Shown here piece by piece: positions 6,570-7,360 of a stretch of 7,979 bases of DNA; position 1 is the stretch's first letter, and each line of letters begins with the position of its first letter. This DNA is from a virus (lineage: Duplodnaviria > Heunggongvirae > Uroviricota > Caudoviricetes). Under the pieces are notes generated by a model that worked only from the letters and a program-made list of their open reading frames with translations, searched no databases and was not told the DNA's origin. Both the position numbers and the translations under genes were made by a program. Location: the IMG/VR virus record IMGVR_UViG_2740892230_000037; one strand, given 5' to 3'.

Positions 6570-6605
6570 NNNNNNNNNNCGTCAGAATAAGTGCAAATAC
6601 TGGAT

Positions 6606-6794
6606 TCATTGTGCACATCCTTTTGGCATCAGACGTAAACGGGCCAGCATTGAAACAATGCATACTTTATTTAATAACTCCCGTTCGTGTTTTCTTTTGT
6701 TAATGGCATCTTCAGTAAATACAGGATTACTGATAGTGACACCAATTTCAAAACAACCTTCAGACGTATTAACGTTTGGTAATAACGTTTCCAT
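6606..6794 (-). CDS. dicB: DicB cell-division inhibitor (complete, 62 aa)
   Basis: ATG at 6792-6794 with GAGGA 7 nt upstream; METLLPNVNTSEGCFEIGVTISNPVFTEDAINKRKHERELLNKVCIVSMLARLRLMPKGCAQ. The stop overlaps the ATG of a second ydfD allele (6580-6609, cut by the gap). DicF lies 180 nt upstream on the same strand. Confidence 0.8.
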   Translation of the reverse strand: METLLPNVNTSEGCFEIGVTISNPVFTEDAINKRKHERELLNKVCIVSMLARLRLMPKGCAQ

Positions 6795-6812
6795 TATCGC
6801 GTCCTCAACAAT

Positions 6813-6964
6813 GAATTTTGTGATGCGGTGCCTGGTGCCTCCAGGTGACGTTAACCAGTTAACAATTAACGCCGGATACAGAGCATTCCCGTTACGCCCG
6901 TAAAAGACCGCTTGTTTTAACTGTTCCGCGTGCGCTTAGCCGCATTCACCGCATCACAAAATTC
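6813..6964 (-). promoter_or_regulatory. Perfect 18-bp inverted repeat (6813-6830 and 6947-6964) bracketing the dicF-dicB spacer; candidate long-range RNA duplex and RNase III site
   Basis: Plus 6813-6830 gaattttgtgatgcggtg is the exact reverse complement of plus 6947-6964 caccgcatcacaaaattc. One arm is just 3' of the DicF terminator, the other about 20 nt upstream of the dicB start. Confidence 0.5.
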
Positions 6965-6969
6965 ACTTT

Positions 6970-7012
6970 AAAAAGGGCGGCAGAGCAGTCACGGAGTAAA
7001 ACTGATACCGCC
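6970..7012 (-). terminator. Intrinsic terminator forming the DicF 3' end
   Basis: GC-rich stem (GGCGGUA...UGCCGCC) followed by five U on the minus-strand transcript (A run at plus 6970-6974). Confidence 0.65.
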
Positions 7013-7027
7013 AAACGTCACCAGAAA
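6975..7027 (-). ncRNA. dicF: DicF small RNA (ftsZ-targeting sRNA of the dicB operon)
   Basis: Reverse complement of 6975-7027 reads TTTCTGGTGACGTTTGGCGGTATCAGTTTTACTCCGTGACTGCTCTGCCGCCC followed by TTTTT, which matches the 53-nt DicF sequence as I recall it, and it lies directly upstream of dicB. Confidence 0.8.
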
Positions 7028-7360
7028 ATTGATAACAGAGGGCGTTGCAGCGGGGTTGTCACTTAAGCGTATGGTCAACCTGACAACCCGGTGTCCTCAA
7101 CGGGGAAGGAATAACCCCGCCATACTTACCGCCGCGCCATTTCGCGGATTGCCACAACCGGAAGCGCACGGTCGACGAAAATTTAACGACAGGCTATCTA
7201 TGAACCAGCTACCTCGCCGTGCGCTTTCGCTTTATGCCCTAACTTTTCAGGGACATATCCTTTCAGTAAACTGTCAGTGCCGGATGTTCACCCGTGTCCG
7301 GCGCACGCACTCCACTTCACCCGTGGAGAACTCCTTAATTACCAACCCTCAGGAGGGTGA

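Follow-up and report, generated by a model that had tools for sequence, protein, structure and literature searches.

What is a long and perfect inverted repeat doing between the gene for the small RNA DicF and the start of dicB? The question is raised by a stretch of 7,979 nucleotides of DNA from a virus of the Caudoviricetes (IMG/VR record IMGVR_UViG_2740892230_000037), which at its full length is referred to here as the window. A sequence-only reading of this DNA had pointed to two exactly complementary arms of 18 nt at 6813–6830 and 6947–6964, and had suggested that their duplex may be the RNase III processing site of DicF and could also couple the release of DicF to the translation of dicB.

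The inverted repeat and its RNA helix

A repeat search confirmed the inverted repeat and lengthened each arm by one base, to 19 nt (6812–6830 and 6947–6965), the arms being 100% complementary and 116 nt apart. It is the sole perfect inverted repeat in the 7979-nt window, with no other above 88% complementarity, and the segment 6580–7979, which includes it, is free of N runs. By our own arithmetic, the number of perfect 19-nt inverted repeats within 400 nt expected by chance anywhere in 8 kb is ~1e-5. The region is 99.6% identical to the annotated dicB locus of strain 2014C-3061 and was found in 4634 of 5426 complete E. coli genomes.

In the transcript of the minus strand, on which all features described here are located, the order is DicF, a U-run, the 5′ arm, 116 nt, the 3′ arm, 17 nt with GAGGA and the AUG, in agreement with the placement suggested previously, i.e. 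between DicF and dicB with one arm about 20 nt before the dicB start. The DicF sRNA in its 53-nt form, with the terminator hairpin at its end, occupies positions 6975–7027, as judged from a match to Rfam family RF00039 (76.7 bits at 7026..6975) and from the DicF annotation of K-12 (1883–1935 of the K-12 locus, L001), which aligns to 7027..6975. The U-run follows at 6974..6970. The 5′ arm begins 10 nt (9 intervening) beyond the DicF 3′ end and thus lies outside the 52–53-nt DicF model of RF00039; half of this arm is included only in the reported 72-nt form of DicF. On the other side of the repeat, the dicB ribosome-binding region (6792–6806), as read from the sequence and the list of open reading frames, consists of GAGGA (6806..6802), a 7-nt spacer and the AUG (6794..6792), the GAGGA being located 3 nt past the end of the helix described below. 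The dicB coding sequence of 62 amino acids (6606–6794) was taken from the same list and corresponds to the annotated dicB of strain 2014C-3061. The repeat search also returned a separate stem upstream (7156–7232), the 16-nt arms of which (7156–7171 and 7217–7232) are 88% complementary.

Folding of the minus-strand transcript of 6780–7030 demonstrated that the proposed duplex forms in both the minimum free energy (MFE) and the centroid structure, the fold having an energy of −94.7 kcal/mol (z = −4.99), a stability reached by none of 200 shuffled sequences. The RNA helix comprises 21 bp (6967..6947 with 6830..6810), a basal G·U and an A-U pair being added to the 19 Watson-Crick pairs of the perfect arms, and accordingly its two 21-nt strands are found at 6947–6967 (5′) and 6810–6830 (3′). 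With 21 bp it has the size of an E. coli RNase III site (about two turns, roughly 20 bp or more).

The conservation of the helix was followed in ~200 loci, gathered from IMG/VR by searching with a DicF pattern and with the DicB protein, by a one-genome-per-species scan and from K-12; the DicF scan of genome contigs gave 8 loci only, and the comparison rests mainly on IMG/VR and the phage collection. Absence of the repeat from other dicF-dicB loci, which the sequence-only reading had named as one of the results that would speak against it, was not observed. The repeat is present in essentially all of the sampled loci, and both arms are kept in 83 of 83 unique DicF-plus-spacer sequences. Nine types of pair-preserving variant, in which G-C or A-U pairs have become G·U or, in one type, G·U has become G-C, were counted in the helix among these 83 unique sequences, most loci being closely related E. 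coli prophages, so that such counts show patterns of tolerance and not independent events. The nine also include a two-step change at 6951/6826, from C-G through U·G to U-A. Five types of variant are disruptive, four of them singletons; the fifth, an A·C at 6962/6815, is one common allele (20 of the 83 unique sequences) and shortens the uninterrupted helix to 15 bp. Counted over loci, the helix is an uninterrupted 21 bp in ~69%, carries the single A·C mismatch in ~22% and has a 1-nt bulge in ~6%.

In the dicF-dicB spacer of the K-12 Qin prophage both arms are present and the pairing is kept. This allele, from which the RNA-end data discussed below originate, is 92–94% identical to the window over 261 nt; it differs in the variable cassette of the spacer and in two adjacent positions of the helix, both C>U in K-12 and both giving G·U pairs. 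Conservation in the 3′ half of the spacer exceeds that of DicF, and this gave the first indication of something more than a plain spacer.

An STnc100-like RNA between the arms

What the sequence-only reading missed is a conserved structured RNA formed by the 116 nt between the arms, recognised by a match to RF02076 and by covariation. In a permissive Rfam scan, positions 6762–6977 of the window (minus strand) matched RF02076 (STnc100) with 39.1 bits (E = 3e-7), which is below the gathering cut-off of 47 bits. The RF02076 consensus has an outer closing helix, to which the arms of the window align, and the consensus helices (outer closing helix, P4 and P5) as well as the conserved junction motifs are present in the window element. 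The 3′ third of the family model, which contains the family's own terminator (model positions about 155–206), is absent here and aligns poorly over the dicB start region. Within 6700–7300, a scan for a promoter or an extra terminator gave no consensus match, the same scan also missing the DicF terminator.

Equivalent sub-threshold RF02076 matches of 34–44 bits were found in eight related loci. Their contexts are the K-12 Qin prophage, Rac-type prophages upstream of kilR, a DicF locus with a Rha-family gene next, the C1-controlled ban operon of P1, P7 and D6 between tRNA genes and tciA/terB, and a Klebsiella phage. Canonical STnc100 copies score 57–208 bits and either follow stx genes or form tandem arrays that repeat every ~253 nt and have a terminator in each unit. 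In the reciprocal comparison, a covariance model made from 12 dicF/kil/P1-type elements matches every canonical copy tested, with E = 1e-10 to 1e-16 and at the Rfam coordinates. The inner domain (6831–6946, minus strand) is on these grounds, i.e. RF02076, RNAalifold and the reciprocal covariance-model matches, predicted to be an STnc100-like structured RNA. Since the 47-bit cut-off is missed and the terminator of the family is absent, the 116 nt between the arms are, by sequence comparison, to be classified as a divergent relative of STnc100 and not as a full member. The arms themselves are accordingly assigned, as a prediction, to the closing helix (P1) of a structured RNA of ~160 nt located between the DicF terminator and the dicB ribosome-binding site.

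STnc100 is known from the literature as an sRNA of prophages and a relative of PasD, with no function assigned to it. No link between STnc100 and the dicF-dicB spacer was found in the literature searched, where there also seems to be no precedent for regarding the dicF-dicB and KilS-kilR "spacers" as divergent RNAs of the STnc100 family whose closing helix has been lengthened to a size suited to RNase III. A small ORF in the spacer (MRLSARGTVK...) was judged probably non-coding; it has 17 codons here and 26 in K-12, and enters the variable cassette, where several differences between alleles are not multiples of three.

An RNAalifold analysis of 12 diverse members of the subgroup gave five helices, P1 (20 pairs), P2, P3, P4 (10 pairs) and P5. 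In the window, the inner domain contains a junction AAU, followed on the minus strand by P2 (6943–6939/6933–6928), P3 (6927–6925/6876–6874), which encloses the replaceable variable cassette, P4 (6873–6864/6856–6847) and P5 (6845–6841/6835–6831), the latter with the sequence CCUGG-AGGCA-CCAGG (CCNGG-AGGCA-CCNGG in the subgroup). The idea that this last sequence could be a nut-like (boxA/boxB) or put-like antitermination site was set aside, as it is without a boxA-like sequence and is positioned downstream of the terminator.

Two-sided change occurs in 18 of the 43 pairs of the 12-sequence alignment overall and in 10 of the 20 pairs of P1. With the structure taken from that same alignment, 95.9% of the cells are paired compared with 86.7% for shuffled partners (0 of 500 shuffles reach the observed value), and the covariation score is 0.337 compared with 0.160 for shuffled partners, pairing falling to 33–42% when the partners are slid. 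In a larger set of 127 unique flank pairs, drawn from all STnc100-like elements fetched, P1 pairs 5–8 are paired in 86%, compared with 66% when shuffled (maximum 71%) and 7–43% when slid. Pair types are mixed, pair 6 being G-C in 68 and A-U in 41 cases, and pair 7 being U-A in 52 and C-G in 37. From the covariation and the mixed pair types across the 127 flank pairs, the pairing of P1 is evidently constrained at the level of RNA.

As far as its length is concerned, the closing helix has 6–10 bp in most copies, 8–9 bp in the phage P1 type and 10–14 bp in the Klebsiella phage, and reaches 20–22 bp in two subgroups only, namely the dicF/kil type and the loci L240, L243 and L276. In the latter, CAACAGACCUUGCAAUGCAGUG pairs with CACUGCAUUGCAAGGUCUGUUG to form a lower stem unrelated in sequence, and small ORFs also follow the element. 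That an equal length has been reached by two unrelated lower-stem sequences argues that the length of the helix itself, about two helical turns, is under selection.

RNase III and the RNA ends of the K-12 operon

Processing by RNase III at this place is already present in the literature, the locus studied here being another allele of a classic operon. According to Balasubramanian 2016 and Ponath 2022, both citing Faubladier 1990, RNase III makes the 72-nt DicF from the full-length mRNA. Counted from the DicF 5′ end at L001:1883, the 3′ end of this form is placed at L001:1954, i.e. nt 12 of the 21-nt 5′ strand of the helix (1943–1963), a position that is arithmetic from the RefSeq coordinates of DicF and may be 1–4 nt off, still inside the arm. 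The partner strand carries an end of its own. In the Term-seq data of Adams 2021 for MG1655, a 3′ end is listed at 1649584(+), with means of 1035 and 753 reads under the two conditions given. Its scores, 0.95 ('No') for Rho dependence and 1.2 for intrinsic termination (threshold 3), place it in neither class of terminator, and it is taken to be of the processing type. In the K-12 genome the helix strands correspond to 1649442–62 (5′) and 1649573–93 (3′), and position 1649584 (L001:2085) falls on nt 12 of the 3′ strand, 25 nt upstream of the dicB start.

Superposition of these positions on the helix demonstrated that L001:1954 pairs with 2083, so that the two 3′ ends face each other with an overhang of 3 nt, or of 2 nt if either of them is off by one. 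The canonical RNase III stagger is 2 nt, the 3 nt computed here being obtained from 3′ ends alone. Facing ends with a 3′ overhang of 2–3 nt would fit an RNase III cut made in the middle of the helix. Furthermore, Gordon 2017 reported 0 and 0 reads in the wild type versus 26 in the rnc deletion at position 1649470, which is flagged there as a known site and is located seven nt inside the enclosed loop. From these data we infer that the published K-12 ends probably are two RNase III cuts in this helix; the equivalent cuts in the window would be after 6956 in the 5′ strand and after 6819 in the 3′ strand. The duplex is thus very probably an RNase III site in the formation of the DicF 3′ end.

The proposal of the duplex as an RNase III site is supported, the K-12 RNA ends and the rnc-dependent coverage coinciding with the helix, but this site is not the sole one. 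Ragunathan 2023 described a better-documented RNase III cut upstream of DicF that makes the 5′ end of a 190-nt DicF species, and the 5′ end expected for this species, 190 nt back from the terminator, falls in the upstream stem 7156–7171/7217–7232. The contrary idea that the wrong RNase III site had been picked, Ragunathan 2023 having the upstream cut only, was dropped, as the 72-nt species together with the Term-seq end show both.

Proposed processing, alternatives and known systems

The explanation that we consider probable as a whole is that the arms are P1 of an STnc100-like RNA, and that cutting of this helix by RNase III splits a read-through transcript in three; the present comparisons provide the helix, with its conservation and covariation, and the kinship with STnc100, and the K-12 literature provides the dependence on RNase III and the RNA ends. 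Transcripts ending at the DicF terminator would never include the arms. When the terminator is read through, the arms would pair into the 21-bp helix once the 3′ arm has been made, closing the five-helix domain, and RNase III would cut both strands of the helix near its centre. Three pieces would be expected, namely an upstream RNA ending as 72-nt DicF, the STnc100-like RNA, excised with a closing stem of 9–10 bp and measuring ~131 nt in K-12 (137 nt here), and the dicB-ydfD mRNA, which would begin with a 5′ monophosphate and ~25 nt of leader. The 9–10 bp kept on the proposed excised RNA correspond to the closing-stem length of free-standing members of the family.

We infer that the excised RNA would be a product of this processing; that it accumulates and has a function is speculative. 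The Term-seq 3′ end speaks for some stable RNA with this terminus. In Gordon 2017 there are no wild-type reads inside the module, which fits degradation equally with a loss of small RNAs in library preparation, and the list of Hfq RIL-seq candidates contains nothing from between dicF and dicB; the zero wild-type reads and the absence from the RIL-seq list argue against an abundant Hfq-bound species. It can be proposed only tentatively, and we regard it as rather doubtful, that the dicBF operon and, in parallel, Rac KilS-kilR make a third product, a ~130-nt STnc100-family RNA that is excised by RNase III and acts with the flanking division inhibitors, the longer helix replacing a private promoter and terminator. 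If true, the recurring site of the module upstream of dicB, kilR, P1 tciA and small membrane ORFs would be functional and not accidental.

Several other explanations of the helix have to be weighed. It could be an architectural closing stem only, for example one insulating the fold of the domain from the mRNA, cutting by RNase III being incidental or marginal here. The closing helix is indeed found family-wide, with covariation even at 6–10 bp, which is too short for RNase III, and the operon-embedded copies of P1/P7/D6 and of the Klebsiella phage do with 8–14 bp; however, such a stem would leave unexplained both the more-than-doubling to ~21 bp in two sub-types with unrelated lower stems and the coincidence of two published K-12 3′ ends and of an rnc-dependent change in coverage with the helix, and we consider this explanation unlikely. 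Even less can be said for a feature of the DNA without any RNA role, such as the terminal repeats of a mobile insertion or a boundary of recombination or of a module, although homology between prophage mosaics breaks off repeatedly at the 3′ arm or within it (query positions 221–231) and the module occurs in unrelated phage backgrounds, P1-like plasmids included. The flanks, AAAG and TTGT, show no target-site duplication. Most of the variation is G·U-compatible on the transcribed strand and would be A·C on the other strand, which is meaningless for symmetry of DNA; two-sided covariation is extensive, the lower stem has been swapped for an unrelated yet complementary sequence, and RNA ends are located inside the arms. 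These observations make a DNA-level feature highly improbable. No empty site lacking the segment from arm to arm was seen among the ~200 loci, truncations taking the 5′ half irregularly, and a miniature inverted-repeat mobile element is contradicted by the missing target duplication, the missing empty sites and variation that preserves RNA pairs. As for a chance palindrome, nothing speaks for it, and it is already refuted by the expectation calculated above, by the uniqueness of the perfect repeat in the window and by its retention, as part of this region, in 4634 of the 5426 complete E. coli genomes.

The remaining alternative is control of dicB translation, the intact helix hindering the loading of ribosomes and the RNase III cut relieving or changing this, which would link the release of DicF to the synthesis of DicB, as in the lambda N leader. 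In favour of it, only 3 nt separate the helix from GAGGA, a leader of 25 nt would be left by the proposed cut, and the 3′ strand ends 16–35 nt ahead of the next start codon in all contexts. Nevertheless, opening of the segment that begins 3 nt ahead of GAGGA and ends at AUG+5 requires 9.4–10.1 kcal/mol in all four constructs (the read-through transcript, the transcript with the 190-nt start, a transcript without the 5′ arm, and the cut product), as calculated by thermodynamic folding, a method with steric and kinetic effects outside its scope. According to folding, the dicB start codon is held in a small hairpin of its own that is independent of the long helix. Furthermore, the helix travels with the enclosed module and not with dicB, as kilR, a Rha-family gene and others also follow it, and dicB is also found without it, directly after a Rha-family gene; what is left there is no more than the leader to the Shine-Dalgarno (SD) sequence and the final ~9 nt of the 3′ arm (AAAAUUCA). 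No report of an rnc effect on the synthesis of DicB was found in the literature searched. The coupling to dicB translation envisaged from the sequence thus found no support, given the equal opening energies and a helix that follows the module, and we regard translational control as quite improbable; steric or kinetic effects on dicB, or effects on mRNA stability through the 5′-monophosphate leader, may play a part.

If the helix is P1 of an STnc100-like RNA cut by RNase III, two published RNA ends gain a structural explanation, a single helix with two facing cuts. The long "untranslated spacer" of a much-studied operon emerges from the comparison as a conserved five-helix RNA, kin to STnc100/PasD, a widespread prophage family of unknown function, and this module recurs in Qin, Rac and P1-type phages just ahead of genes for division inhibitors or of the kil type. 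The K-12 locus offers a tractable place to ask what the role of an STnc100-type RNA may be, and whether its processing sets the level of the toxic DicB or KilR. The advance is incremental and at the level of annotation, the RNase III part mostly confirming old biochemistry.

Excision of a folded RNA by RNase III through a long stem formed by its flanks is well known from the 16S and 23S rRNA precursors and from the early mRNA of phage T7. The comparison extends to a helix of about two turns made from distant flanks, staggered cuts that release the RNA, and the separation of cistrons; the difference is that the released RNA is here the proposed product, one without a known function. In the lambda N leader, an RNase III-sensitive structure involves the ribosome-binding region, and its cleavage raises N translation. 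An RNase III-sensitive structure near a ribosome-binding site in the leader of an early-left operon is common to both cases, whereas at dicB the ribosome-binding site is located outside the helix and no change in its accessibility is predicted.

The window element has its closing helix and the GGUGAAU junction in common with the STnc100/PasD prophage sRNAs, as well as two hairpins, namely P4 and UCACC-NGG-AGGCA-CCN-GG-CACC. In contrast to them, it belongs to the 34–44-bit class, is without its own terminator or an evident promoter, has a closing helix of 21 bp rather than 6–10, and is embedded in an early operon before a kil-type gene instead of being located downstream of stx or in arrays. 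The RNase III processing of dicBF in K-12 Qin is alike in operon, position and near-identical sequence, and in a reported RNase III-made 72-nt DicF 3′ end within the 5′ arm; it differs in having two G·U pairs where the window has G-C, and another variable cassette. Neither a helix nor a partner cut is described in the accessible K-12 dicBF papers, and the RNA between the arms is not treated in them either. In the Rac KilS-kilR region, the 3′ arm differs by a 1-nt bulge and a G·U pair, and no Term-seq end is listed upstream of kilR for Rac of K-12. The arrangement is nevertheless alike, as a small RNA ending at a DicF-like terminator (KilS) is followed by an STnc100-like module with the same arms and by a gene for an FtsZ inhibitor.

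The module and the start of dicB

The stretch enclosed by helix P3 at the centre of the STnc100-like module between DicF and dicB (positions 6875–6925 of the window), together with its equivalents in other loci, is a replaceable cassette. Among the DicF-spacer loci compared, at least five unrelated versions of it are found in spacers that are otherwise near-identical, and in the same loci the helices flanking the cassette are nearly invariant. Downstream of the module, the start codon of dicB is predicted to lie inside a small hairpin on the minus strand (GAUAAUG-GAAA-CGUUAUU, 6781–6798). According to the predicted folding, most of the cost of approximately 9–10 kcal/mol for opening the dicB ribosome-binding region is due to this hairpin, whose contribution is independent of the long helix that closes the module.

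RNA ends and a second stem upstream of DicF

Upstream of DicF, the minus-strand transcript contains another inverted repeat, an imperfect one whose 16-nt arms (7156–7171 and 7217–7232) are 88% complementary. Counting back from the terminator places the 5′ terminus of the 190-nt, RNase III-dependent DicF species in the 3′ arm of this repeat. At the Qin locus of K-12 (L001), a strong Term-seq 3′ end has been reported on the plus strand at K-12 positions 1649368/9 (Adams 2021), which correspond to L001 1869–1870. It is situated 13–14 nt 5′ of the 5′ end of DicF and probably corresponds to the upstream fragment, after trimming, of the RNase E cleavage that generates DicF.

Composition of the window and of two phage records

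The window contains 15 runs of exactly 10 N each between 1165 and 6579, starting at positions 1165, 1571, 1844, 2194, 2528, 2734, 3086, 3285, 3451, 3713, 3944, 4139, 4406, 4599 and 6570. Downstream of every run, a renewed copy of the preceding sequence is found with 80–96% identity; for example, across the run at 6570, segment 6390–6569 shows 91.7% identity to segment 6581–6760, the latter being the 3′ part of dicB. The window has the appearance of a scaffold built by joining variants of multi-copy prophage genes end to end, so that ORFs spanning the N runs are not real. Near-identical copies of the E. coli dicF-dicB spacer (85–89%) also occur in the records of two phages of non-enterobacterial hosts, Aeromonas phage AP1 (MT713136) and Actinobacillus phage vB_Apl-pPE4, and these look like contamination or chimeric assembly, not true distribution.

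Related RNAs in other loci and the parallel in Rac

Canonical STnc100 forms tandem arrays of 3–5 units each in four of the compared loci (L237 342–1038, L248 1702–2340, L281 4349–5513 and L231 2265–3380); L237, L248 and most of L281 have a period of approximately 253 nt. Direct reading of the L237 array shows a separate terminator in every unit and a tRNA gene after the array, and the L231 array has tRNA genes on its flanks. Module copies with a closing helix of 8–9 bp are found in the P1-like plasmid pEP91B-2 (L212 2501–2621), phage D6 (L214 1501–1621) and phage P7 (L215 1501–1616), in each case within the ban operon controlled by C1, with tRNA genes on one side and tciA/terB on the other, a gene whose annotation links it to tellurite or colicin resistance or to cell-division inhibition. 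In L213, the DicF locus in which a Rha-family gene precedes dicB, Rfam matches to isrK (67.7 bits) and C4 antisense RNA (81.9 bits) at 2806–2994 lie within or adjoin that gene and indicate that an immI-like antirepressor control region of the P1/P22 type has been inserted downstream of the module.

In the Rac prophage of K-12 (L345 1747–2003, minus strand), the annotated sRNA KilS, which terminates at a DicF-like hairpin terminator, is followed by the same STnc100-like module with its long helix, in this copy carrying point changes in P2 and P5, and then by kilR. Given this order, KilS/kilR of Rac and DicF/dicB of Qin are parallel three-part architectures.
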